Shown here piece by piece: positions 6,554 through 45,788 of a stretch of DNA of 64,000 bases. The stretch is from assembly GCA_041572575.1 (NCBI GenBank), contig JBFFSH010000001.1:11341-75340 (forward strand). Reading direction: 5' to 3'. Numbering within the stretch: the stretch's first letter is position 1; each line of letters starts with the position of its first letter. The stretch comes from Thermodesulfobacteriota bacterium (lineage in GTDB: Bacteria > Desulfobacterota_D > UBA1144 > Nemesobacterales > N074bin48). A program made the position numbers and the translations under genes. Below the pieces are notes generated by a model that saw only the letters and a list, made by a program, of their open reading frames with translations, ran no database searches and was not told the origin of the DNA.

Positions 6554-7531
6554 TCATTCATCAAAACTTAAAACCACATTGCTTCTTTTATGACCGGTTT
6601 CTATGAGTCTGTGAGCCTCAGCTATTTCATGAGGCTTATAGGTCTTGCTAATAGTAGGTTTAATCACTCCCGACTCGGCAAGCTCTTTGAGAAACGTCAT
6701 ATCCTTTGCCTGTTTGTAAGCAGGCCTTAGACCCGTGGCAGCAAAGATCACTTTTTTGCTGCCTATTATGGAAGTCCATAGCATCCAAGTGAGATGAGTA
6801 AAGGTAAACACAGTTGCAAGGTAGACCCCGCTTTGTTTAAGTATATTCTTACACTTGCAATAAGAGCTTTTGCCTACCGTGTCGAAAACAAAATCGTAAC
6901 TATATGAACCTCTGGTAAAATCCACAGATGTATAGTCGATAACATGATCTGCACCAAGGGATTTTACAAAATCCAGGTTTGGGGTGCTGCACACTCCGGT
7001 GACCTCTGCGCCAAAGTGTTTTGCAAGCTGCACAGCAGACGACCCAACGCTGCCAGAAGCTCCGTTTATAAGGATTTTTTGTCCGCTTGTGATTTTTGCC
7101 TCATCTCTAAGGAATGGCAGTGCCGTGTTTCCTCCTTCACATACACCGGCAGCTTCAGCATAGCTAAGATTGGAAGGCATAAGTGCAAGTGCACCATCCT
7201 CGGCTATGGCTATATATTCAGCATGGGCTCCAAAAGCAGCCCCCGGTGCTCCAATGACTTTGTCACCGATTGTAAAATTCTTAACATCCTTGCCTACAGC
7301 TTCAATCTGTCCGGCAAACTCAGTACCCAATATAGTAGTCCTTGGTTTTAAAATTCCAAAATAAAGCCGTGCAAAATATGGTTCACCCCTTCTAAATGTA
7401 CAATCAGCACTGGATACCACCGCCGCATGGACTTTTATAAGCACTTCATTTTCTTTTGGTACAGGCTTATCTACTTCTACTATTTTTAAAACTTCCGGCG
7501 GTCCATATTGTGTAAATACAATCGCTTTCAT
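6554..7531 (-). CDS. Zinc-independent MDR-family NADPH:quinone oxidoreductase or alcohol dehydrogenase-like protein.
   Basis: GroES-like N-terminus, a Rossmann GASGSVGSSAVQLAK motif, and 325 aa length. Confidence 0.8.
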   Translation of the reverse strand: MKAIVFTQYGPPEVLKIVEVDKPVPKENEVLIKVHAAVVSSADCTFRRGEPYFARLYFGILKPRTTILGTEFAGQIEAVGKDVKNFTIGDKVIGAPGAAFGAHAEYIAIAEDGALALMPSNLSYAEAAGVCEGGNTALPFLRDEAKITSGQKILINGASGSVGSSAVQLAKHFGAEVTGVCSTPNLDFVKSLGADHVIDYTSVDFTRGSYSYDFVFDTVGKSSYCKCKNILKQSGVYLATVFTFTHLTWMLWTSIIGSKKVIFAATGLRPAYKQAKDMTFLKELAESGVIKPTISKTYKPHEIAEAHRLIETGHKRSNVVLSFDE

Positions 7532-10805: not shown

Positions 10806-11171
10806 TTATAATCCAAACTGCTTTTCCACTTTTTCCTGTTCTTCCTTGCAGTTTATACAAAGAGTAGTCTCAGGGCGGGCTTTTAATCTGTTTGCCGATA
10901 TATCTTCTCCACAGTCATCGCACACCCCATAAGTACCGTCCTCAGTCCTGGCTATTGCCTGTTTGATTTTCTGTATGAGTTTTCTCTCGCGGTCTCTCTT
11001 TCTAAGCTCTATGCTTCTATTTGATTCAGACATTGCTCTGTCCAGAGGGTCCGGAAATGGATCATCGCCCTGGCTCAGGTCATCCAGGGTTTCACCTGCA
11101 GTGCCCATAAGCATATCCATACGCTGCTGCAGGAGGTCTTTATACATTTTTAGATCAGTTGCTTTCATCAA
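10806..11171 (-). CDS. DksA/TraR-family C4 zinc-finger protein.
   Basis: C-terminal CDDCGEDISANRLKARPETTLCINCK is a Cys4 DksA-type finger. An acidic coiled region precedes it. Confidence 0.75.
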   Translation of the reverse strand: MMKATDLKMYKDLLQQRMDMLMGTAGETLDDLSQGDDPFPDPLDRAMSESNRSIELRKRDRERKLIQKIKQAIARTEDGTYGVCDDCGEDISANRLKARPETTLCINCKEEQEKVEKQFGL

Positions 11172-11330: not shown

Positions 11331-12371
11331 TTGAGCAAATTTAGTACAATTGAGTGGAAAGATGGAAGCGTTGTTATGATAGATCAGCGCAAACTTCCTA
11401 CTGAAGAAACGTATATTAAATGCACTACCTCTGCACAGGTCGCAAAAGCCATTAAAGAGATGGTAATAAGGGGCGCTCCTGCAATAGGAGTTGCTGCAGC
11501 AATGGGTGTTGCGCTTGGTGCAAAAAAAATAAGAGCGAAAAATAAGGATATATTTTTTAGTAAGCTAAAATCCTTATCAGATGAAATAGCATCTACCCGC
11601 CCTACTGCTGTAAATCTCTTTTGGGCTGTAAAGAGAATGAATGATCTTGCAAATTCTCTAAAAAATGAGGAAATTGAAAATATTGTTACAAGACTTATCC
11701 AAGAAGCAGAACTTATACGCAAAGAAGACATTGAGATTTGTAAAGATATAGGAAAAATGGGTGCAAAACTGCTAAAAAAGGGAAACAACGTTATTACCCA
11801 CTGTAATGCCGGCGCTCTTGCAACGGCAGGTTATGGTACGGCGCTAGGAGTTTTGAGGGCAGCTAGTGAGCAGGGCAAGAACATTCATGTTTACTCCACT
11901 GAAACAAGGCCCTTTCTACAGGGCTCCAGACTTACCGCCTGGGAGCTTAGTAAAGACAATATCCCTGTGACTATTATTACCGACAGTATGGCAGGCCATG
12001 TTATGAGAAGTAAAAACATCGATGCAGTAGTAGTAGGGGCTGATAGAATAGCTGCAAACGGAGACGTAGCTAATAAAATAGGCACTTTTTCACTATCAAT
12101 ACTTGCTAAGCATCATAAAATTCCATTTTATGTAGCAGCTCCACTATCTACAATCGATGTTAACTGTGCTTCGGGAGACAAAATACCAATTGAACAAAGA
12201 GATCCTGCTGAAATAAGCACTATTAAGGGTAAGAGGATTGCAGCAGATACAGATATCTATAACCCTGCATTTGATATTACACCAAACAAAAATATTGATG
12301 CGATTATTACTGAAAAAGGTGTGATTACTCGTCCTTATATTAAATCAATATCAAAGCTTTTTAATAACTAG
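11331..12371 (+). CDS. mtnA: S-methyl-5-thioribose-1-phosphate isomerase (eIF-2B-like family).
   Basis: MSKFSTIEWKDGSVVMIDQRKLP start plus conserved GAPAIG and HCNAGALAT motifs. Confidence 0.85.
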   Translation: MSKFSTIEWKDGSVVMIDQRKLPTEETYIKCTTSAQVAKAIKEMVIRGAPAIGVAAAMGVALGAKKIRAKNKDIFFSKLKSLSDEIASTRPTAVNLFWAVKRMNDLANSLKNEEIENIVTRLIQEAELIRKEDIEICKDIGKMGAKLLKKGNNVITHCNAGALATAGYGTALGVLRAASEQGKNIHVYSTETRPFLQGSRLTAWELSKDNIPVTIITDSMAGHVMRSKNIDAVVVGADRIAANGDVANKIGTFSLSILAKHHKIPFYVAAPLSTIDVNCASGDKIPIEQRDPAEISTIKGKRIAADTDIYNPAFDITPNKNIDAIITEKGVITRPYIKSISKLFNN

Positions 12372-12895
12372 AGCTCACCGTGTCTTTCAAGCTCAATTTT
12401 GCACGATAGGCAAAGTTTTGCAAAGGGCATCACTCTGAGCCTGTCTTCGCCTATTTCATCCATACAGTTATCGCACTCTCCATAAACACCTTCTTCTATG
12501 CGTTTTAGGGATTCATCGATTTGAATAAGCTTGGTACGCTCTCTATCTGTAAACATAAGAGCAAGTTCTCTGTCTCTGTCATTGGATGCATGATCGTAAA
12601 AATCACCCACGTCATTTTTTAGATAGTCCGATTCATCTTTTATTGACTTTCCGACGTCCTGCAACAGCTCTTTTTTCATCTGCTCAAGCATTAGTTTAAT
12701 TTCATCTTTCCAGTCAGAAGCTTTTGCTTTTTTCGTGGGTTTAGGAGTTGCAGATAAATCTTTAGCAGCAGATGTCTTGGTAGTTTTTTTGGCTGCTTTA
12801 GCGGTAGTTTTCTTAGTGGCTGCCGCACGTGTTGTTTTTTTTGTTTTTTCTGTATCAGCTTTTTTCTGTCTTGGCATATTAGTCTCTGTCATCAC
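12368..12895 (-). CDS. DksA/TraR-family zinc-finger protein with a Lys/Ala/Thr-rich histone-H1-like N-terminal tail.
   Basis: C-terminal CDNCMDEIGEDRLRVMPFAKLCLSCK Cys4 finger. N-terminal 60 aa are KKTT/AKKA repeats. The 3' end overlaps the mtnA stop (convergent). Confidence 0.7.
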   Translation of the reverse strand: MMTETNMPRQKKADTEKTKKTTRAAATKKTTAKAAKKTTKTSAAKDLSATPKPTKKAKASDWKDEIKLMLEQMKKELLQDVGKSIKDESDYLKNDVGDFYDHASNDRDRELALMFTDRERTKLIQIDESLKRIEEGVYGECDNCMDEIGEDRLRVMPFAKLCLSCKIELERHGEL

Positions 12896-13066: not shown

Positions 13067-14620
13067 ATGAGCAACAATCGTTCAGGCAAACGAGAGCTAT
13101 GGAACTCTAAAACAGGCCTTATTCTGGCTATGGCTGGAAACGCTATAGGACTTGGCAATTTCCTTCGCTTTCCTGTACAGGCAGCTGAAAACGGCGGTGG
13201 GGCGTTTATGGTGCCCTATATAATCTCATTTTTTCTCATCGGTATCCCTATTATGTGGTGCGAATGGGCAATAGGCAGATACGGTGGCTCCAAGGGCCAT
13301 GGTACTACTCCTTCGATATTTGCCCTCTTATGGGATCATCCGGCTGCAAAAATAATAGGAGTTCTCGGGCTTTGGATTCCCCTTATAGTAGCAATATATT
13401 ATATTTATATTGAATCCTGGACCCTTGGATATTCTCTTCATTTTCTTCTTGGCTCAAGCCCTGAAATTCCTACTACCAATACTGAAGATGTAAATGCTTA
13501 TATTAAACCATTTGGTGACTTCTTAGGTACATATATCGGAGCTGGTGAAGTATTTTTAAAGCCTTCGACAATGGCTTATACGGCATTTGTAATTACCCTT
13601 ATTATTAATTTCACAATTCTTTTAAAAGGTATTAGCAGGGGTATAGAAATTTTTGCAAAATTCGCGCTTCCCACTTTATTTATACTTGCAATAATTCTTC
13701 TTATTAGAGTATTAACCCTGGATACTCCGCATGGAAATGCCATTGCCGGGCTAAATTTCCTGTGGACCCCCGACCTGCAGGCTCTTAAAAATCCAAACGT
13801 ATGGATTGCAGCAGCAGGACAGATGTTTTTTACTCTTAGCCTGGGTTTTGGAGCAATAATAACCTATGCGTCATATGTTAAGCATGACCACGACATAACC
13901 TTGAGTGGTCTTACTTCGGCATCATTAAATGAAACAGTTGAGGTTGTAATAGGAGGTTCAATTGCTATTCCAGCGGCTGTTGCATTTTTTGGAGTAACAG
14001 GAGCTATTGTAATAGCCCAGTCCGGAGCATTCAGCCTTGGTTTTGTTAGTGTGCCTGCAATATTCGCATCAATGCCTCTTGGAAACTTATTTGGGTTTTT
14101 ATGGTTTTTTCTTCTTTTCTTTGCAGGTCTTACATCGTCTGTTGCTATTACCCAACCAATCATAACATTCTTTCAGGATGAATTTTCTTATACACGAACC
14201 AAGTCGATTGTAGTTTCATATATTATAATTGTAGTAAGCGTAATAATGGTTATTTTTGTAGATAAAACAATTGATGAATGGGATTTTTGGGCAGGAACAA
14301 TAGGAGTTGTCCTTTTGGGGTTTTTTGAGCTTATAATATTTATTTGGATTTTTGGAGGGGAAAAAGCATGGGAGGAAGTAAACAGGCACGGACTTATAAG
14401 AGCTCCAAAGATATTTTATTACATAATGAGATATATAACCCCTCTATTTTTACTTCTGTTGATTGCATTTTGGGGCTATGATTTTCTGCCAAAGATACTT
14501 GAGCAAAGCTCATGGAACATCTGGCTTTCAAGAGCTTATATTATAGGACTTTTTGTATTTTTAACGTTTCTTGTGTTCAGATCAGAATCAAAAAAGGAGG
14601 CTAAGCCAATTGGAAATTAG
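13067..14620 (+). CDS. Sodium-dependent transporter, SNF (neurotransmitter:sodium symporter) family.
   Basis: [13 protein letters not shown]...[11 protein letters not shown] signature, about 12 TM segments, 517 aa. Confidence 0.85.
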
Positions 14621-14715
14621 TGCTCTTATGTTTATGACTGGTTCCTGGGGATTTATTTTATCTCTGTTGACCTACTGCATTTATAAGCTTATGACTGCAA
14701 TAAAGAAATAAAGTT

Positions 14716-15468
14716 CTATTTTTTATAGAAATCTTTTTCCCACTTCTTCTGGTTTTGGCTTGCTTCCTGCATTGCCGGAATATACTGGGCTGCAAAGACC
14801 ATAAATTTATTAATCAAGTTATATGGAAACTTTATTGGTCTTACAAAATCAACAAAGAGCACTACTCTGAAGCCATCAGTATCGTTCCAGACTTCATGTT
14901 CATAGGTATCATCAAATACTATACTTTGCCCTTCATCCCATACATGAATCTGGTCGTCTACTCTTATCCTGCATTTTTCCTTTGGCTGTGGAACTATAAG
15001 CCCCAGATGATATCTTAACACTCCGTTGAAAGGGCCTTTATGAGCCGGGATATGTTTATTGGGCGATAGTATTGAAAAAAATGCTGTCTTCATACCAGGG
15101 ATTTTTTTAAGAATCCTTGCTGTTTCCGGACACCTTTTACAGTTTTCCTTACTTTCAATACCATATCCTGCAAGAAAATAAGTCTTCCAGTTATTATCAG
15201 TAGTTATCGCATCCACCCCAGGCATAATATTCTGGAAATTTGGAAGTTCTGATCTGTGCTTCATTACATCCTCAAGCTCACTTCTAATACTAAGCCACTC
15301 ATCTTCAACTTCTTTTACCCACGGAAAGCTAGAATTATCATATACTGGCGGGTTGCCGTTTATGGAATATCTTTCATTAATTCCCTCAGCCCAGTTAATG
15401 AATGATGAAAGCCCTCCTGCGTACTTTTTGGGTGGATTAAAACCTTTTGAGGTGTTGTCATTACTCAT
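14716..15468 (-). CDS. Aspartyl/asparaginyl beta-hydroxylase-family Fe(II)/2-oxoglutarate dioxygenase (LpxO/OlsC-like).
   Basis: AspH cupin core with HxD/E...H-type motifs (HIPAHKGPFNG...HEVWN). Third gene of a 3-gene operon. Confidence 0.7.
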   Translation of the reverse strand: MSNDNTSKGFNPPKKYAGGLSSFINWAEGINERYSINGNPPVYDNSSFPWVKEVEDEWLSIRSELEDVMKHRSELPNFQNIMPGVDAITTDNNWKTYFLAGYGIESKENCKRCPETARILKKIPGMKTAFFSILSPNKHIPAHKGPFNGVLRYHLGLIVPQPKEKCRIRVDDQIHVWDEGQSIVFDDTYEHEVWNDTDGFRVVLFVDFVRPIKFPYNLINKFMVFAAQYIPAMQEASQNQKKWEKDFYKK

Positions 15469-15477
15469 GATATTAGA

Positions 15478-16788
15478 TCAGCCCTTTTGATTTGAATAAT
15501 TTTTAATATTTAAATAATCTTCTATAAGATGAATAAAAAACAGCAACATTGCAAATGTAAGAAGTCCGAACATCCAGGTGTATCCACCAATAATAGAAAC
15601 AATCATAAATCCCATAGCATAAGCGTTTCTTCTTGACAGCGGCCTTAGAAATAAAATAAACCTTCTTATAAAAGAGGGATTATCCTCGTATTTATCTATT
15701 GTGAAATATTCTACAAGACTTCCCGAGTTTGTATATTTGGAAAGATAATGAAAAGACCAGATTAGAAAGAAGAAAAATACAAACAGGTTAAAAAGGCCAA
15801 AGAATATAGCAAGATTGCTGTCCGACACCCTGTAATATCCTATTGTAAGACCAATAAAAAAGGAGAGCACAGTAAATTGATCAGATATTGTATCCACCCA
15901 CTGCCCGGTTTTGGTTTCCATGAGCTTTACCCTTGCAACTTCACCATCACATCTGTCTAAAACTGTTGCAACATACAAGAAAAAACAGCCCCATACCGGA
16001 TGACCGAGAGCAAGGAATACTCCTGACATCATACCTATTACATTTAACAACACGCTTATCATATTGGGAGTAAGAGAAGTCTTAACAAGCTGCCGGCTTG
16101 TAGGAAGTGAAAATCTGCTGTTTATTTTTCTCGATACCCAGCCAGTAGCGGTTTTACCAACATTTGAGAAAAGTATTTCTTTTGCCTCATTAAAAGATTG
16201 ATCAGTATCATTTAAATGATACCAGTAGCCACTGGTTATTTGCTGATATTTGATTTTTGCTGAAGAGCTCAGTTTATTAGATACGAAACTGCCTATAGAG
16301 TCAGAAGAGTTAATTATCTTTTTAAGCTCCTTACCAGTAGATATGAAAGCACCTATTGCCTGCCCACTGTTTTTAAAGCTGCCTTCAATTTTACCATTGT
16401 TTAGTGTAAGAGAAGGATTATCTAACTCATCTACAAGAATCAAAAAATCATTTTTAGCAATTTTTTGATTAATAAAATCTTTTAGGCTTTCAGGAGTAAT
16501 AACGAGATTGGATTGTAAAACAAGGCAGTGCTCATCATCCAAACTAATCTTTTCTCCCTTTTTATGCCAGTTGACACTAGAAGATATTCTCTTATCAGTT
16601 TCAATATTATCCAGTGCATGATAATTGTCAGTTTGGGTTAGGACGGTAAATTTACTTATACCTGCCCTCTGAGCCACAATTATTAGTCTGTTTAGCTGCG
16701 GAACTCCGACGAGTTCTTTGGTGGGAAATTCGGATAAATCTGCCCCGTCAATGCCGGTGCCGCTTGCAACAATGATTGCATGATACAT
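15478..16788 (-). CDS. Fusion protein: N-terminal degenerate nucleotidyltransferase-like domain plus C-terminal CDP-alcohol phosphatidyltransferase membrane domain.
   Basis: The C-terminus carries D-x2-DG-x2-AR-x8-G-x3-D (DRCDGEVARVKLMETKTGQWVDTISD) and several TM helices. The N-terminal AIIVASGTGIDG resembles a sugar-phosphate nucleotidyltransferase P-loop. Confidence 0.7.
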   Translation of the reverse strand: MYHAIIVASGTGIDGADLSEFPTKELVGVPQLNRLIIVAQRAGISKFTVLTQTDNYHALDNIETDKRISSSVNWHKKGEKISLDDEHCLVLQSNLVITPESLKDFINQKIAKNDFLILVDELDNPSLTLNNGKIEGSFKNSGQAIGAFISTGKELKKIINSSDSIGSFVSNKLSSSAKIKYQQITSGYWYHLNDTDQSFNEAKEILFSNVGKTATGWVSRKINSRFSLPTSRQLVKTSLTPNMISVLLNVIGMMSGVFLALGHPVWGCFFLYVATVLDRCDGEVARVKLMETKTGQWVDTISDQFTVLSFFIGLTIGYYRVSDSNLAIFFGLFNLFVFFFFLIWSFHYLSKYTNSGSLVEYFTIDKYEDNPSFIRRFILFLRPLSRRNAYAMGFMIVSIIGGYTWMFGLLTFAMLLFFIHLIEDYLNIKNYSNQKG

Positions 16789-16796
16789 TTGTAGTA

Positions 16797-17591
16797 TTAT
16801 CTGTTGCTATCAACAACCCTAAGCAATCTTTGTTCGTATGGCACATCCGTCTGGAACTTGCTATCTATAAACTTGCTTGCATTAATTCTTGCTTTAAAGA
16901 GGTCTCCGGGATAGTCAACATCCATCCAGAACATATCTTCTACATCAAAGGATTTAACTTTGTATCCTTTTTCAATGAGCCTGTGTATTGCAGATATATA
17001 CCATTTTTTCTCAGGATTCTCTGACCTCATCTCCTCTTCAATCGATCTTTTTAAAAGCTCTACGCCTGTATCTCTAAAAACCCTTACGCCGACTGATTCT
17101 GCGCTTGGTGAACTCTCAAGTGACTTGCCAACTTCTACGATGTTTCCTTCCTTTACTACAATCTTCATATCCTCATCTTCATACTCGTCTCTTTTCTTTG
17201 CAGGAAGGCAAATCTTATCTTCGAGCATACTGAGCGCCGAATCAAGCACTTCAAGTTCAAACACATCATCACCATTCATCACTACTATATCCTGATCCAT
17301 TTCACCACGTGCTATCCAGAGTGAAATCAGGCTGTTGGTTGTTTGATAGAATGGATTATAAAGTGTCTTAATCTTTAAACCCAGTCCATCGTAGTTTCTC
17401 AGAAAATCTTCTACTTTTTCAAATCCAAAACCAATTACTATTACTACTTCGTCAATCCCGCAAGCTCTAATGCTGTTTATTTGATGTTCAAGGATGGTAA
17501 CCCCGCCTACATCCAACAAACACTTAGGAATATATTTTGTATAAGGATATAGCCTTTTGCCCCTACCTGCTGCAAGTATAATTGCTTTCAT
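16797..17591 (-). CDS. Sugar-phosphate or alcohol-phosphate nucleotidyltransferase (LicC/IPCT-like cytidylyltransferase).
   Basis: MKAIILAAGRGKRLYPYTKYIPKCLL is the NTP-transferase glycine-rich loop. 264 aa. Confidence 0.75.
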   Translation of the reverse strand: MKAIILAAGRGKRLYPYTKYIPKCLLDVGGVTILEHQINSIRACGIDEVVIVIGFGFEKVEDFLRNYDGLGLKIKTLYNPFYQTTNSLISLWIARGEMDQDIVVMNGDDVFELEVLDSALSMLEDKICLPAKKRDEYEDEDMKIVVKEGNIVEVGKSLESSPSAESVGVRVFRDTGVELLKRSIEEEMRSENPEKKWYISAIHRLIEKGYKVKSFDVEDMFWMDVDYPGDLFKARINASKFIDSKFQTDVPYEQRLLRVVDSNR

Positions 17592-17892
17592 TAGTATTTC
17601 TCCAAATTCTCCAAATCAGTTATTACAGTTGCTGAGTTGCAACATAGGTAGGTTTTATAAGTATTTTTGAATAAAAATACACCTTCATCCTACCATCTCC
17701 TTTAATAAACTTAGATTTATAACCTCTTTCTTCTTAGATGTCAATATTATGATGTTTTGTATCTTTTAAAAGATGCATCAAAATTTTAAATTGAATTTTA
17801 CATTAAAATCATAAATATTTCTAACAATCACCACAGAAACTTTCTCAAACTATGGCAATTTGTATAATGTCAGGTAATTTCAAAATTATTTA

Positions 17893-18282
17893 TTACGAGC
17901 CTGCTACCTTCAGCTTTGCAACATGATCTGATATATGTTTAACAGAATTATCATCATTTACATAAATCAGCTTAGGTTTGTGGAGACTAGCCTCATTTTC
18001 TGAGTAATCTGCATAGTTTGCAATTATCACCAGATCGCCTGTTTTTGCCAGATGAGCTGCTGCACCATTTATGCATATATGTCCTGAGTTCCTCTGCCCT
18101 TCTATAACATAAGTGGAAAGCCTGTTACCATTTGTAATGTTATAGATATGCACCTGTTCATATTCCTGCAGGTCTGCAAGATCCATAAGCTCGCGGTCAA
18201 TGGTAACGCTGCCTTCATAGTCAACATTAGCATCTGTAACCGTTGCCCTGTGAATCTTAGATTTTAATAATGTGCGGTGCAT
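17893..18282 (-). CDS. panD: Aspartate 1-decarboxylase.
   Basis: [29 protein letters not shown] with the pyruvoyl-forming G-S site. 129 aa. Confidence 0.9.
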
Positions 18283-18297
18283 TATCTTACCTCCTTA

Positions 18298-19137
18298 TCA
18301 AAGCCTTATATTGTCTATGAGTCTGGTTCCATCCAGCCTTGCTGCTACTGCTACCACATCTCCAGAGCTCACCGCTTTTTTTTCACTTAAATTTTGTCCG
18401 TCTACTATCTCTAAATATTCAATTTCGCGTATATCCGCTTCATTCAAGATTGAATAAGCAGTGTCCAGTAAATTTTTCTTATCATTAACTCCGCTGTCAA
18501 ACTGCTTTTTTACATTAAACAGAGCATCAGATATTGATGCTGCTTGTTGTCTTTTGTCACTTTTTAGATATTCATTCCTAGAACTCATTGCAAGACCACT
18601 CTCCTCCCTTACAATTGGGTGGGACAGAACCTCAACATCCACATTCAGGTCAGAAACCATTTGTCTTATTACACATAGCTGCTGATAATCCTTTTCGCCA
18701 AAAACTGCATAATGGGGTTTTACAATATTGAATAGTTTTAGAACAACTGTAACCACGCCCCCGAAATGACCGGGTCTGAACTTTCCGCAAAGTGGCTTTT
18801 GAATTTCCTGCACTTCTACAGTGGTTTGAAAACCGCCGGGGTACATATTGTCTGCACTCGGGAAAAATATGGCATCTACTCCCAGCTCTTCCAGAAGGTT
18901 TTTATCTTTGTCCAGATCTCTGGGGTATTTATCAAAATCTTCATTGGGACCAAACTGTGTAGGGTTTACGAATATGCTTACTACTAATATGTCTGAAAGA
19001 TTGCGCGCATTTTTTACTAGCTGCAGATGACCTTCATGCAGTGCACCCATTGTAGGTACAAATGAAATAGTATTTCCCTGCGATCTATGTGATTCGGAAA
19101 AGGCTTTCATATCTGCAATATTGTCTATCAGTTCCAT
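18298..19137 (-). CDS. panC: Pantoate--beta-alanine ligase.
   Basis: PTMGALHEGH HIGH-like motif. 279 aa. Lies between panB and panD. Confidence 0.9.
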   Translation of the reverse strand: MELIDNIADMKAFSESHRSQGNTISFVPTMGALHEGHLQLVKNARNLSDILVVSIFVNPTQFGPNEDFDKYPRDLDKDKNLLEELGVDAIFFPSADNMYPGGFQTTVEVQEIQKPLCGKFRPGHFGGVVTVVLKLFNIVKPHYAVFGEKDYQQLCVIRQMVSDLNVDVEVLSHPIVREESGLAMSSRNEYLKSDKRQQAASISDALFNVKKQFDSGVNDKKNLLDTAYSILNEADIREIEYLEIVDGQNLSEKKAVSSGDVVAVAARLDGTRLIDNIRL

Positions 19138-19140
19138 ATT

Positions 19141-19950
19141 TTAATTACTCCAGCTAAAGCTGTTATCTTTTGCAGGGAATTTGGATTTTGTTACATCTGA
19201 AGAAAAAGACTTTATGGCTTTTGTCATTAAGCCTTTAAAATCTGCATACTGTTTTACAAATTTAGGAACTCTGGAACTATGCAGTCCAACAAGGTCGTTT
19301 ATTACAAGCACCTGACCATCACAATGCGGCCCTGCACCGATTCCTATCGTGGGAATTGATACGCTGTTTGTTATTGCTTTTGCAAGCTCAAGAGGTATTC
19401 CTTCCAGTACTATGCTGTAGGCACCAGCAGATTCAGTAGCCTTGGCAAGCTTTATATATCTATTCTTTTCTTTTTTATCCCTGCCCTGAATCTTGTAACC
19501 TCCCATATTGTGAAAGGACTGCGGGCAGAGGCCGATATGACCCATTACAGGAATTCCTGCATTTACTATGGATTTTATTGTGTCTATATACTCATCTGTA
19601 GTTTCGAGTTTTACAGATTCGGCAAATCCTTCTTTCATTAACCGCCCGGTATTTTGTAGTGCTTGTTCCTTTGACGTTTGATAAGACATAAACGGCATAT
19701 CTGCACAGATGTGAGCTGTTTTTGCGCCGCGTGATACCAGCCTTGTATGATAGATCATATCCTCTATAGTTACAGGAATAGTAGTGTCCTGACCTTGTAC
19801 TACATTTCCGAGGGAATCTCCAACCAGGATGATATCTACCCCTGCTTCATCCACAATACGAGCGGTAATGGCATCATAGGAGGTAAGCATGACAAGCTTT
19901 TGCTTATCTTTCTTTTTCTTTATTATGTCGGGCACTCTTATTTTATTCAT
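19141..19950 (-). CDS. panB: 3-methyl-2-oxobutanoate hydroxymethyltransferase.
   Basis: KLVMLTSYDA...ILVGDSLG motif. Leads the panBCD operon. Confidence 0.9.
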   Translation of the reverse strand: MNKIRVPDIIKKKKDKQKLVMLTSYDAITARIVDEAGVDIILVGDSLGNVVQGQDTTIPVTIEDMIYHTRLVSRGAKTAHICADMPFMSYQTSKEQALQNTGRLMKEGFAESVKLETTDEYIDTIKSIVNAGIPVMGHIGLCPQSFHNMGGYKIQGRDKKEKNRYIKLAKATESAGAYSIVLEGIPLELAKAITNSVSIPTIGIGAGPHCDGQVLVINDLVGLHSSRVPKFVKQYADFKGLMTKAIKSFSSDVTKSKFPAKDNSFSWSN

Positions 19951-19992
19951 AATTCATAATTTATTATTCATAAAACATTAGTGCAGCACCCC

Positions 19993-20038
19993 AAAAAAGA
20001 CAAAAAAAAGCCAGCAGAGAGTTTGTCTCTCAGCCGGC
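19993..20038 (-). terminator. Rho-independent terminator downstream of rlpA on the minus strand.
   Basis: On the minus strand, GCCGGCTGAGAG-acaaa-CTCTCTGCTGGC forms a 12-bp stem with 2 mismatches, followed by TTTTTTTTGTCTTTTTT. Confidence 0.6.
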
Positions 20039-20208
20039 AGTCATTTTATATTTTTTATTAGAGGTACGGCTCATTGTTCCGTCCTGATTTTTCCTTTTAT
20101 AAAAAAATAAATCTAATTAAGCTAATCATAAGTCTCAGTTCCTGTTTTTTGGAATCTAAGCTTAGTAAAAATTTAATTACTATATTTATAATGTCAAATT
20201 TCTATAAC

Positions 20209-20904
20209 TTACTCAAGTTTTATTCTTGGCTTATAACCAAGATTTTTTAATTTTTTGTATTCAGCTTCTGCACTGCTTTTCGTATCGTATCCTACCAACC
20301 TTACCCTGTAGTAACTGTCATTATTGTGTGAATATTCATGTACATTTACATTGTCAAAGTTTGCCGAAAGTTTCTTTTTTAGTTTATATGCATTTGATTT
20401 GTCTTTGAACGAACCCACCTGAACAACATACTTACCTTTAAAGTAATTATCTTCCCTGTTAGGAGTGGAAATAACCTCTACTTTTACCTGTGCTGTACCA
20501 GGCCCAATAAGATCAACCTCTTTTGCAGCTGCATAGGATAAGTCAATAACCCTACCGGCAACAAAAGGCCCCCTGTCATTTATCCTTACAATAACGTCCA
20601 TTCCATTCTCAAGATTTGTTACCCTTACAATGGAGTCCATAGGAAGCGCTTTATGGGCAGCGGTAAGTTCATCCTTATCAAATACTTCGCCGCTTGCAGC
20701 CCTTCTTTTATGTTCTTCTATCCCATACCAAGAAGCTAGCCCAACCTGCACATTACCACTTACTTCACCCTCTAAATCTCCCAAACCCGGAAGTTCCTGT
20801 TCCACCGGAGGCCTGGGTTTGGGTTTCCTTTTTGGATAGTACTTGGAAACTCCACAAGACCATGCAAAAATCAGCATACATATCAATAAAAATTCTTTTT
20901 TCAT
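20209..20904 (-). CDS. rlpA: Septal-ring lytic transglycosylase RlpA-family lipoprotein (DPBB domain) with a C-terminal SPOR domain.
   Basis: Lipoprotein signal. DPBB core (ASWYG...TASGE...). C-terminal SPOR-like YVVQVGSF...YRVRLVGY. Confidence 0.8.
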   Translation of the reverse strand: MKKEFLLICMLIFAWSCGVSKYYPKRKPKPRPPVEQELPGLGDLEGEVSGNVQVGLASWYGIEEHKRRAASGEVFDKDELTAAHKALPMDSIVRVTNLENGMDVIVRINDRGPFVAGRVIDLSYAAAKEVDLIGPGTAQVKVEVISTPNREDNYFKGKYVVQVGSFKDKSNAYKLKKKLSANFDNVNVHEYSHNNDSYYRVRLVGYDTKSSAEAEYKKLKNLGYKPRIKLE

Positions 20905-44063: not shown

Positions 44064-45533
44064 ATGAATAATTTTTTTGAAATACTTGATAAGTATAAGT
44101 CACTACAAAAATCTGCGCTTATCGAAGAATCTAAAAGCATAAGCTACGAGGAATTATTTAACCTATGCACAAGCCTCTCATCATTTTTATGTAAAAATCA
44201 AATTCATAAAGGTGAGCGGGTTGCCATCTTTATTCCAAATTCCATAGAATTTGCAGTAAGCTTTTTCTCATGTTTAAACCTGGGTGCAGTTGCTGTTCCT
44301 ATAAACCCAAAATTTAAAAAATATGAAATTGAGTACTTTATTAATGACTCCGAGCCAAAACTAATTATTACATCCGATATACTTAAAACATTATTGCTAA
44401 CAGTTAATAAAGAACTGAAGAGCAGAACAATCTCTATTAGTGGTAAAAATCCTGATTTTAATTTACATGAGCTAATATGTTCTGATCGTATTTTAAACCC
44501 TAATTCAACTAGTGAAACGGATAAAGCAGTTTATCTATACTCGACTGGATCTACAGGTAATCCAAAAAGAGTTACAAGAACCCATAAAAATCTGATTACT
44601 CTTGCTAACAACCACAGTGAAACCGTGGGGTTGGATGAATCGGAAAAAATATTGTTTACCCTGCCAATTTCTCATACATATGCCCTTGGCAACTTCATTT
44701 CTGCAATAAAATCCGGTATGACCTGTTATTTACTTGAAGATTTTAACAGGAAAAAAGTAACAGAGATTATTATTAAACAGCAGATAACAATTTATCCTTG
44801 CGTTCCCTTTATACTAGATATCCTGGCTGAATCAAATATTGATCCTGACACATTTAAGAGTCTTAAGCTTGTAATATCCGCAGGCGCTGCGCTTTCTAAA
44901 GAGATATTTGATAAGTTTTCCAATAAATTTGCAAAACATCCAAGACAGCTCTACGGATCTTCAGAAACAGGGGTTATTTCTATAAATCTAAGCAGCAATA
45001 TAGAAAACACATCCGATTCTGTGGGAAGACCCGTAAAAGGGGTTACAGTTAAAATAGTAACCGATGAAGGCAAGGAAGCAGATACCGGAGAATTGGGTGA
45101 AATAATTGTAAAGAGTGAAACAATGACTAACGGATATGATAATATGCCTCAGGAAACCAAAGAGGTTTTTAAAGATGGGTTTTATTATACAGGCGATCTT
45201 GGCTATATGGACAATGACGGAATGATCTATATTAAGGGTCGCAAGAAGCTTATGATAAATATAAGCGGTAATAAAGTCGATCCTGTTGAAATTGAAAATA
45301 TTTTAACTTCACATCCGAAAATACATGAATCCGCTGTAGTAGGAATTACGGATCAAAACAGCACCGAAATAGTAAAGGCTTTTATTGTTTGTGATGAAAA
45401 TATTGAAAGGAAAGATATAATCCAATATCTAATGAATCAGGTTTCAGATTATAAAATACCAAAACTAATAGAATTTGTTCAGTCCATTCCAAAAAGCCCT
45501 ACTGGAAAAATCCTAAGGAACAAACTCAAATAA
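44064..45533 (+). CDS. AMP-dependent synthetase/ligase (adenylate-forming enzyme: acyl-CoA or acyl-carrier ligase).
   Basis: AMP-binding motif LYSTGSTGNPKRV. 6-nt gap after argC-like. Confidence 0.8.
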   Translation: MNNFFEILDKYKSLQKSALIEESKSISYEELFNLCTSLSSFLCKNQIHKGERVAIFIPNSIEFAVSFFSCLNLGAVAVPINPKFKKYEIEYFINDSEPKLIITSDILKTLLLTVNKELKSRTISISGKNPDFNLHELICSDRILNPNSTSETDKAVYLYSTGSTGNPKRVTRTHKNLITLANNHSETVGLDESEKILFTLPISHTYALGNFISAIKSGMTCYLLEDFNRKKVTEIIIKQQITIYPCVPFILDILAESNIDPDTFKSLKLVISAGAALSKEIFDKFSNKFAKHPRQLYGSSETGVISINLSSNIENTSDSVGRPVKGVTVKIVTDEGKEADTGELGEIIVKSETMTNGYDNMPQETKEVFKDGFYYTGDLGYMDNDGMIYIKGRKKLMINISGNKVDPVEIENILTSHPKIHESAVVGITDQNSTEIVKAFIVCDENIERKDIIQYLMNQVSDYKIPKLIEFVQSIPKSPTGKILRNKLK

Positions 45534-45536
45534 ACA

Positions 45537-45788
45537 ATGAGTGAGCAATTAAAACTAAATATTAAAGAAATAATAATAAACAAATTCAATCTTGGCATTG
45601 ATGTCGTCGATTTCGATGAACAAAAGCCCTTTATAGAGTATGGAGTAGGAATTGATTCTGTTGCTAATTTAGAACTTATACTCCAAATTGAAAAGAACCT
45701 TAAGATCAATATAGATGAAGCGCAGGTTAATAGTGAAATACTGTTTAATTTTAAAACTCTTTATAAATTTCTAAGAGATCAGATATGA
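45537..45788 (+). CDS. Acyl or peptidyl carrier protein (phosphopantetheine attachment site).
   Basis: 83 aa with the GIDSV motif around the conserved Ser. 3-nt gap after the ligase. Confidence 0.65.
   Translation: MSEQLKLNIKEIIINKFNLGIDVVDFDEQKPFIEYGVGIDSVANLELILQIEKNLKINIDEAQVNSEILFNFKTLYKFLRDQI

Follow-up and report, generated by a model that had tools for sequence, protein, structure and literature searches.

What do two adjacent genes make, when one encodes a free cytidylyltransferase and the other a membrane phosphotransferase that already carries a nucleotidyltransferase-like domain of its own? The question is raised by a locus on contig JBFFSH010000001.1 of a Thermodesulfobacteriota bacterium, analysed here within a window of 64,000 nucleotides (64 kb); all positions are those of this window. 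The locus comprises three minus-strand genes. Gene g1 (16797-17591, 264 aa) encodes a stand-alone COG1213/LicC-IPCT-type cytidylyltransferase, predicted to be active. Gene g2 (15478-16788, 436 aa) encodes a predicted fusion of a pseudo-nucleotidyltransferase and a CDP-alcohol phosphotransferase. Gene g3 (14716-15468, 250 aa) is an accessory member of the operon and encodes a putative Fe(II)/2-oxoglutarate hydroxylase of the LpxO/OlsC family. The genes are separated by 8 nt (g1-g2, 16789-16796) and 9 nt (g2-g3, 15469-15477), as a first-pass annotation of this DNA had reported, and its three domain assignments agree with Pfam (NTP_transferase, CDP-OH_P_transf and Asp_Arg_Hydrox). The system is genuine, conserved and so far uncharacterised. 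It represents a variant on IPCT-DIPPS/AF2299 with a separate cytidylyltransferase and, on the transferase, a retained pseudoenzyme domain.

The conserved part of the locus is the pair g1-g2. One genome per species was scanned with g2; of 130 relatives the best 80 were retained, and their loci were surveyed by tblastn and extraction of open reading frames (ORFs). Nearly all are Dadabacteria-type metagenome-assembled genomes (MAGs); a few are labelled Spirochaetia, Poribacteria or uncultured bacterium. Residue counts given below refer to 80 orthologues of g1, 79 of g2 and 29 of g3. Gene g1 lies directly upstream of g2 in 80/80 species loci. The pairing survives in eight loci in which panBCD is missing and the synteny is broken, and also in a marine clade with a g2 of only 31% identity. 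The identical g2 protein occurs on many metagenome contigs with the gene order unchanged; an 85%-identical homologue and remoter ones occur in MAGs labelled Candidatus Dadabacteria, Thermodesulfobacteriota or Deltaproteobacteria. A tblastn search of a plasmid collection with g2 returned a single irrelevant actinomycete match. The tight spacing of the three genes is not due to chance, because the g1-g2 gap is 1-15 nt in 79/80 species and the g2-g3 gap, where g3 occurs, is mostly 10-30 nt. Of the 74 loci with sufficient downstream sequence, only 28 (38%) have g3 after g2, and homologues of g3 stand alone in Verrucomicrobiota. What evolution has kept stable is therefore the pair g1-g2, to which g3 was added in particular lineages as an enzyme that acts by itself elsewhere. 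The anatomy given in the first-pass annotation is right; its three-gene pathway and its emphasis on the hydroxylase are not upheld. The pairing is obligate, has its own near-consensus promoter and is retained in every related genome retrieved. It is kept across apparently marine, sponge-derived, groundwater and hot-spring assemblies (habitats are taken from record titles). The pair belongs to the core genome of Candidatus Dadabacteria, and its spread over habitats suits a housekeeping envelope role.

One MAG, JBAUII01, contains two g1-g2 pairs (loci L024 and L030). One copy has the usual panBCD...g3 context; the other is without panBCD or g3 and lies beside DUF3179 and CMD genes. The second pair could be a paralogous copy or the result of a mixed bin.

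The protein g1 matches NTP_transferase at 1.9e-14. Its best solved relative is the inositol-1-phosphate cytidylyltransferase of T. maritima (TmIPCT, 4JD0; 1.5e-14, residues 2-232), followed by the phosphocholine cytidylyltransferase LicC (1JYK). Residues R16, K26 and D112 are critical in 4JD0 (CpgD paper, bioRxiv 10.1101/2025.01.09.632243). The equivalents in g1 are R13, K23 and D108, each conserved without exception (80/80 orthologues). Across the phylum, g1 proteins are on average 69% identical to that of the window. By its catalytic residues and fold, g1 is assigned to the COG1213/LicC-IPCT-type cytidylyltransferases and predicted to be active. It reaches no NCBIfam equivalog model; on the IPCT/DIPPS model NF041135 it scores 91.3 bits, over the N-terminal half only.

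The protein g2 consists of a cytosolic N-domain (aa 1-210, 16159-16788, minus strand) and a C-domain (aa 211-436 plus stop, 15478-16158, minus strand) composed of a juxtamembrane helix and a six-helix class I CDP-alcohol phosphotransferase, as modelled. Pfam CDP-OH_P_transf (PF01066) covers aa 240-327 (4.6e-12, 47 bits vs a cut-off of 22). The catalytic signature D278-x2-D281-G282-x2-A285-R286-x8-G295-x3-D299-x3-D303 (15880-15957, minus strand), located on TM2-TM3, is the canonical CDP-alcohol phosphotransferase motif recognised in the first reading, and its eight residues are invariant in 79/79 orthologues, save one V at 303. Helices of the model lie at 218-235 (juxtamembrane), 241-260, 264-287, 293-322, 325-352, 389-400 and 402-431. 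Foldseek probability is 1.00 against each of 4MND, 4O6N and 5D91. The signature, together with a modelled fold of six transmembrane (TM) helices and a juxtamembrane helix, places g2 among the predicted class I CDP-alcohol phosphotransferases. Best sequence matches in PDB are AF2299 (profile E 1.4e-24) and AfIPCT-DIPPS (1.9e-20), then phosphatidylinositol-phosphate (PIP) synthases. Top NCBIfam matches are IPCT/DIPPS (NF041135; 89.9 bits vs an equivalog cut-off of 580), archaetidylinositol-phosphate synthase (52 bits), PIP synthase (41 bits) and the BT_1523 type (31 bits), all far below their cut-offs. The acceptor is inositol-1-phosphate in each of these four families.

The resemblance to IPCT-DIPPS extends to the N-domain. 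On the NCBIfam IPCT-DIPPS model g2 aligns over aa 4-337, N-domain included. The AlphaFold model of g2 (pLDDT 80, pTM 0.75) superposes over both domains on A. fulgidus IPCT-DIPPS 4MND, its best structural match (TM-score 0.65/0.69), so that the likeness noticed in the first-pass annotation is real. Taken by itself, the N-domain has the complete nucleotidyltransferase fold and matches RmlA, MurU, HddC and T. maritima IPCT. The catalytic residues are gone. In a profile-profile alignment of the g1 family with g2, R13 corresponds to D14, K23 to a gap and D108 to N94. Over 79 orthologues position 14 is N, E or D (R in 2), the K23 equivalent is variable, and position 94 is N, S, C or A, never D. Other positions are near-invariant: G10 (76/79) and G12 (78/79) of the glycine loop, and S93 (78/79); Q31, R34 and R41 are invariant in an alignment of 24 sequences. 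The N-domain evolves fastest, with a mean identity to the window of 34%, vs 57% for the membrane domain of g2. The degeneracy first suspected is thus confirmed as loss of the catalytic triad within a full fold, throughout the orthologues. Because the fold is complete and many residues are invariant, yet all three catalytic residues are replaced, the N-domain is best read as a pseudoenzyme domain kept under selection and not as a decaying remnant.

Comparison with the two archaeal relatives sets the variant apart. A. fulgidus IPCT-DIPPS (AF0263, 4MND, NF041135) shares with g2 a cytosolic nucleotidyltransferase fold, a juxtamembrane helix, a six-TM phosphotransferase and an identical signature. 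It differs in that the fused domain of g2 lacks the three catalytic residues and the predicted activity resides on the separate g1, in that no inositol-1-phosphate synthase (MIPS) is linked here, in that the hosts are apparently mostly mesophilic bacteria (from record titles), and in the g2-specific TM4-TM5 loop. A competent cytidylyltransferase domain (GxGxR Arg, PK Lys and catalytic Asp) on the same chain, which defines IPCT/DIPPS, is not found in g2 (D14, gap/variable, N94). AF2299 of A. fulgidus (4O6M/4O6N/4Q7C), the best PDB sequence match, is likewise a CDP-alcohol phosphotransferase with an N-terminal cytidylyltransferase-like domain. Unlike g2 it has a shorter extramembrane domain, its TM part beginning at about chain residue 176 (tag included) vs residue 215 in g2, and it is without the 'YTNSGSL...RPxSRRN' loop.

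Relatives outside the phylum were sought by a representative search of 1.84 billion proteins with g2. Near-full-length relatives range from E ~1e-72 (P0127, on the same contig as locus L088) to 1e-37 (P0129, a marine Dadabacteria orthologue). The next full-length relatives, P0130, P0134, P0137, P0138 and P0146, are about 30% identical to g2. In these five, a canonical and apparently active nucleotidyltransferase domain (GxGxR, PKPL, MxDH) is joined to a transferase of the g2 subfamily, with the 'RYTNSGSL', 'KRDFF' and basic TM5 motifs in common; their scores on the IPCT/DIPPS model are 242-266 bits, still below its cut-off. The simplest history, as suggested by these sequences, would be a fused bifunctional ancestor; in Dadabacteria a free copy would have taken over catalysis and the tethered copy would have been kept for another role.

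A route for the pair can be proposed from these parts. Soluble g1 would convert CTP and a small phosphorylated polar alcohol to CDP-X, as suggested by its catalytic residues and family. Motif and fold suggest that g2 would displace CMP and transfer X-phosphate to an acceptor hydroxyl at the cytoplasmic face of the inner membrane, with formation of a phosphodiester. IPCT-DIPPS and the fused relatives serve as the model for CDP-X as donor. Use of the cytidylyltransferase product by the transferase is supported by the nearest relatives outside the phylum, in which an apparently active nucleotidyltransferase is fused to the same transferase subfamily. The dead N-domain of g2 would either dock g1 or bind CDP-X and hand it over, and an enzyme-pseudoenzyme pair would stand in place of the covalent IPCT-DIPPS fusion. 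Very probably, g1-g2 builds a phosphodiester-linked polar group.

A different donor has to be weighed at this point. With CDP-diacylglycerol (CDP-DAG) as the donor, g2 would be PIP-synthase- or PgsA-like, its N-domain would be a structural relic as in AF2299, and g1 would supply some other compound or the acceptor, through a loose link. The matches to archaetidylinositol-phosphate synthase and PIP synthase are weaker but real, the N-domain is catalytically dead, and the g2 model matches RsPIPS and MkPIPS chains, although the crystallised constructs carry a fused AF2299 domain that is a possible part-source of this match. The scores to CDP-DAG-using families are nevertheless far below cut-offs, the adjacency of g1 is absolute, closely spaced and survives rearrangements, and the fused relatives keep an active nucleotidyltransferase, which is sensible only if its product feeds the transferase. 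This donor is accordingly considered improbable.

The identity of X can be narrowed to a best guess. The COG1213 family acts on very different substrates, among them inositol-1-phosphate, phosphocholine, phosphoglutamine and phosphoglycerate (PMC12275187), and for this reason X is not nameable, in agreement with the first-pass annotation. Of all candidates inositol-1-phosphate would be the likeliest, since both g1 and g2 have inositol-phosphate enzymes as their top neighbours by structure and profile; glycerol phosphate, phosphoglycerate, phosphocholine and phosphoethanolamine are among the others. Members of the COG1213-type family also use 2-aminoethylphosphonate. The inositol-type pathway of the first reading is only one of several readings; no MIPS is found in the window or in the flanks examined. 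Among ORFs of at least 200 aa in the 64-kb window there is no MIPS, no feeding kinase and no finishing phosphatase, and the annotated flanks of related loci contain neither MIPS nor a HAD hydrolase. The two genes would suffice by themselves only with a central metabolite as X-phosphate.

The preferred acceptor is a membrane lipid, of which the product would be a polar head group. Genetic precedent exists for a COG1213 cytidylyltransferase acting with a PgsA-type transferase on a lipid acceptor (PMC12275187, PMC9393093). In Caulobacter, the COG1213-type enzyme CpgD makes CDP-glycerate, the proposed donor for the PgsA-family transferase CpgA in the synthesis of the lipid ceramide diphosphoglycerate (PMC12275187, PMC9393093, PMC13228409). 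That system follows the two-step logic proposed for g1-g2. The published descriptions set it apart in that CpgA is described with a PgsA domain only (PMC9393093) and that a sphingolipid cluster contains the genes; the window shows no sphingolipid genes. A similar head-group route is proposed for the 'alternative' inositol-lipid cluster of Bacteroides vulgatus and Prevotella (Heaver et al. 2022, PMC9246714), which has a separate NTP-transferase and CDP-alcohol phosphatidyltransferase in a Kennedy-type route that is proposed and unconfirmed. That cluster is defined by linked MIPS and HAD hydrolase genes, neither of which occurs in the flanks here, and no pseudo-nucleotidyltransferase domain is described for it; g2 has only 31 bits on the related BT_1523 model, and the locus is not a member of the cluster. 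Points for a membrane anchor are the presence of g3 in part of the species, a GT4 glycosyltransferase in two loci, and flippases and glycosyltransferases beside the fused relatives. The GT4 gene occupies the slot after g2, on the same strand, in L058 (9437-10609, plus) and L075 (9439-10596, plus); both loci are without g3. Its weak matches are to MshA (an inositol-phosphate glycosyltransferase), WcaI-type and PEP-CTERM-type glycosyltransferases. In some lineages GT4 could extend the lipid head group; in the lineage of the window, g3 could 2-hydroxylate envelope acyl chains. A two-enzyme CDP-alcohol pathway with a membrane-anchored product is given an even chance of being correct.

Several observations weigh against this lipid reading. 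The closest solved or characterised relatives, AfDIPPS and AF2299, do not process lipids, and g2 has six TM helices only, an architecture tied to soluble acceptors, the lipid-acceptor CPT/EPT enzymes carrying 3-4 extra helices (PMC4634129). In PIP synthase the acceptor pocket lies between TM4-6, and two arginines hold the phosphate of inositol phosphate (PMC4634129). The cytoplasmic TM4-TM5 loop of g2 is strongly conserved (Y352 78/79, T353 74/79, x, S355 79/79, G356 79/79, S357 78/79), as are basic residues at the start of TM5 (R382 79/79, R386 73/79, R387 79/79). Loop and basic residues appear compatible with an anionic acceptor; as in PIP and DIPP synthases, invariant arginines at the TM5 start would be fitting for an acceptor that is soluble and phosphorylated. 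No substrate-supplying gene (MIPS, kinase) is linked to g1-g2. The flippase and glycosyltransferase contexts come from three distant relatives only. A physical interaction of g1 with g2 is a matter of pure inference. Since g3 works without g1-g2 in Verrucomicrobiota, it is weak evidence for a lipid product.

Some of these observations also favour a compatible solute. Here g1 would make CDP-inositol or CDP-glycerol, g2 would join a second soluble alcohol phosphate to give a phosphodiester phosphate resembling those of di-inositol phosphate (DIP), diglycerol phosphate (DGP) or glycerophosphoinositol (GPI), and an unlinked phosphatase would remove the phosphate. By fold and by sequence g2 is nearest to AfIPCT-DIPPS and AF2299, the best solved relative of g1 is T. 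maritima IPCT, the four top NCBIfam families of g2 share the inositol-1-phosphate acceptor, and the six-TM protein has its conserved basic residues (R382, R386, R387) by the acceptor pocket defined in PMC4634129. Non-thermophilic deep-sea Thaumarchaeota are also reported to carry IPCT/DIPPS genes. Set against this are the score of 90 bits vs the 580-bit equivalog cut-off, the lack of a linked MIPS or phosphatase in any locus, and the absence of the TM4-TM5 loop motif from AF2299 in the alignment. Retention of the pair across marine, groundwater and hot-spring assemblies (record titles), behind a near-consensus promoter, is unlike a stress-specific solute, and an appended lipid hydroxylase and GT4, with flippases by fused relatives, are hard to explain for a cytoplasmic one. 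A solute is possible and on the whole doubtful.

Decoration of an envelope glycan would place the phospho-alcohol on a lipid-linked or polymeric glycan such as lipopolysaccharide, capsule or a teichoic-like polymer. The loci of the fused relatives (L092 6857-10409, L094 5737-12440, L095 8402-11419) contain Wzx-type Polysacc_synt flippases (L094, L095), GT2/GT4 genes (L094) and an HpnL-like flippase (L092), and GT4 follows g2 in L058 and L075. An uncharacterised radical SAM protein of 311-321 aa is encoded directly downstream of the fused gene in two of the three loci (L092, L094). The glycan evidence from relatives comes from these three loci only, at ~30% identity; the 80 orthologous loci are without polysaccharide genes and have a housekeeping backbone of panBCD, SNF, dksA and mtnA instead. 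The first-pass annotation had named a consistent location in glycan loci as the sign of a glycan role; such surroundings are found for the fused relatives and not for the orthologues. Action on a glycan is, to our knowledge, not documented for any class I CDP-alcohol phosphotransferase, and this too counts against a reading that stands little chance.

The third gene is a separate matter. The protein g3 matches Asp_Arg_Hydrox over its full length (4e-56). It scores 335.3 bits on the NCBIfam OlsC model (NF052565; cut-off 450), near full-length, and 135.9 bits on LpxO (NF033391; cut-off 500), below both equivalog cut-offs. In alignment with human AspH, whose iron-binding histidines lie in the segments 'H-x-G-P' and 'E-H-E-V-W', the matching residues of g3 are H143 and H191, invariant in 29/29 orthologues. 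With the same Pfam family as the OlsC/LpxO acyl 2-hydroxylases, a near full-length OlsC match and two predicted iron-binding histidines, g3 is best described as a predicted OlsC-like acyl 2-hydroxylase; its linkage to g1-g2 is inconsistent. In Verrucomicrobiota, homologues of 59-62% identity occur by themselves in unrelated contexts, with neither g1 nor g2 in the vicinity. In the lineage of the window g3 is co-transcribed with g1-g2 and is not mechanistically required by the pair. No ornithine-lipid synthase (OlsBA or OlsF) was seen in the window, where no dedicated test was made for it.

Expression of the pair appears to be its own. The spacer between panD and g1 is 301 nt in the window. In an alignment of 73 such spacers (loci L010-L089), TTGACA and, 17 nt on, GTTA.A recur in 70% of loci or more, and the majority of rows show TTGACA-N17-(G)GTTATAAAT or ..AGTTACA... 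The pattern TTGACA-N17-TATAAA/T, often with G or GT before the -10 element, is a near-consensus sigma-70 promoter and the most conserved block of the spacer. In the window the predicted promoter of g1-g2(-g3) lies at 17716-17744 on the minus strand (TTGACA 17744-17739, 17-nt spacer, TATAAA 17721-17716). A generic promoter scanner overlooked it, because T is demanded at the last -10 position. Since the promoter is conserved and belongs to the pair, transcription of g1-g2 is predicted to be independent of panBCD. A functional link to the upstream pantothenate genes was rejected because of the separate conserved promoter and because g1 and g2 stay together where panBCD is absent.

The 5' leader, from promoter to g1 start codon, is ~120 nt in the window (17592-17715, minus strand). 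Its length is conserved (~110-120 nt), its sequence is clade-specific, and it starts with a purine run (AAAGGAG..). Among 18 sequences of the marine/sponge clade, the positions of a 30-pair hairpin derived from a single member are 85.5% paired (slid controls 44-54%), with 22 compensatory cells (0/500 shuffles); L082 at about 7090-7210 is an example of an L040-type leader. RNAalifold on the 18 leaders gives a weak consensus of -2.9 kcal/mol. About 20 loci form the L020-type clade, in which the pyrimidine run CCTTCT immediately precedes the g1 Shine-Dalgarno sequence and the purine run AAAGGAGGAG stands at the transcript start; this suggests possible sequestration of the ribosome-binding site. 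Leaders of L084-L088 have a GC hairpin followed by a T-run, which looks like an attenuator. No known RNA element was detected in the g1 leader when 14000-20500 and nine related loci were scanned with Rfam. Because the window leader has a predicted fold no better than shuffles (z = -1.3), no riboswitch is claimed, and the marine-clade hairpin is a lead only. A small upstream ORF in the window leader was rejected as a conserved feature, because L020-type leaders are without the ATG.

The surroundings are those of an ordinary chromosome, with a flat G + C content of 33-41%. Upstream of g1, panB, panC and panD lie on the same strand. At 20126-20197 (minus strand), 176-247 nt upstream of panB and at the expected position of that motif, there is a sub-threshold Rfam match to the 'pan motif' RF01749 (31.2 bits vs a gathering score of 36.2, E = 0.021); the motif was not recovered at gathering score in nine related loci. 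Downstream of the operon lie a convergent SNF-family transporter, then dksA-like genes, mtnA, bamD and obg. On either side of mtnA is a DksA/TraR-type zinc-finger gene (12368-12895 and 10806-11171, both minus strand); the longer carries an N-terminal extension that is rich in Lys, Thr and Ala and resembles histone H1 (KKTTRAAATKKTTAKAAKKTTK...). An AMP-binding (acyl-activating) enzyme is encoded at 44064-45788 (plus strand) with an 83-aa ORF 3 nt after it. The two may form an acyl-carrier pair; apart from them and the operon, no candidate for a lipid-related gene set was noticed in the window.

Dadabacteria, which are uncultivated, occur widely in oceans, sponges, groundwater and soils. We know of no description of their envelope chemistry, and a search of literature on Dadabacteria with inositol, lipid or osmolyte terms found nothing relevant. 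A pair present throughout the related genomes examined and preceded by a strong promoter of its own makes a constitutive phosphodiester compound very probable. Such a product might be of use as a lipid biomarker, or account for adaptation of the envelope or to osmotic conditions in these bacteria. The locus is a natural example of a bifunctional IPCT-DIPPS-type enzyme resolved into an active free enzyme and a retained dead domain, and may help to clarify the still obscure physiological function of archaeal AF2299, which has been crystallised and bears a similar cytidylyltransferase-like domain. Being small and self-contained, g1-g2 is directly testable by heterologous expression. A bolder reading, speculative and rather unlikely as a whole, is that all Dadabacteria make an undescribed phosphodiester head group (or solute) by an enzyme-pseudoenzyme relay, in which the free cytidylyltransferase is recruited by, or passes its CDP-alcohol to, the dead membrane-tethered domain. 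Such a relay would resemble GMPPA/GMPPB and be new for CDP-alcohol pathways, and the clade-specific structured leader might add a novel cis-regulatory control. If this is true, an uncultivated phylum would have its own signature lipid in this product.

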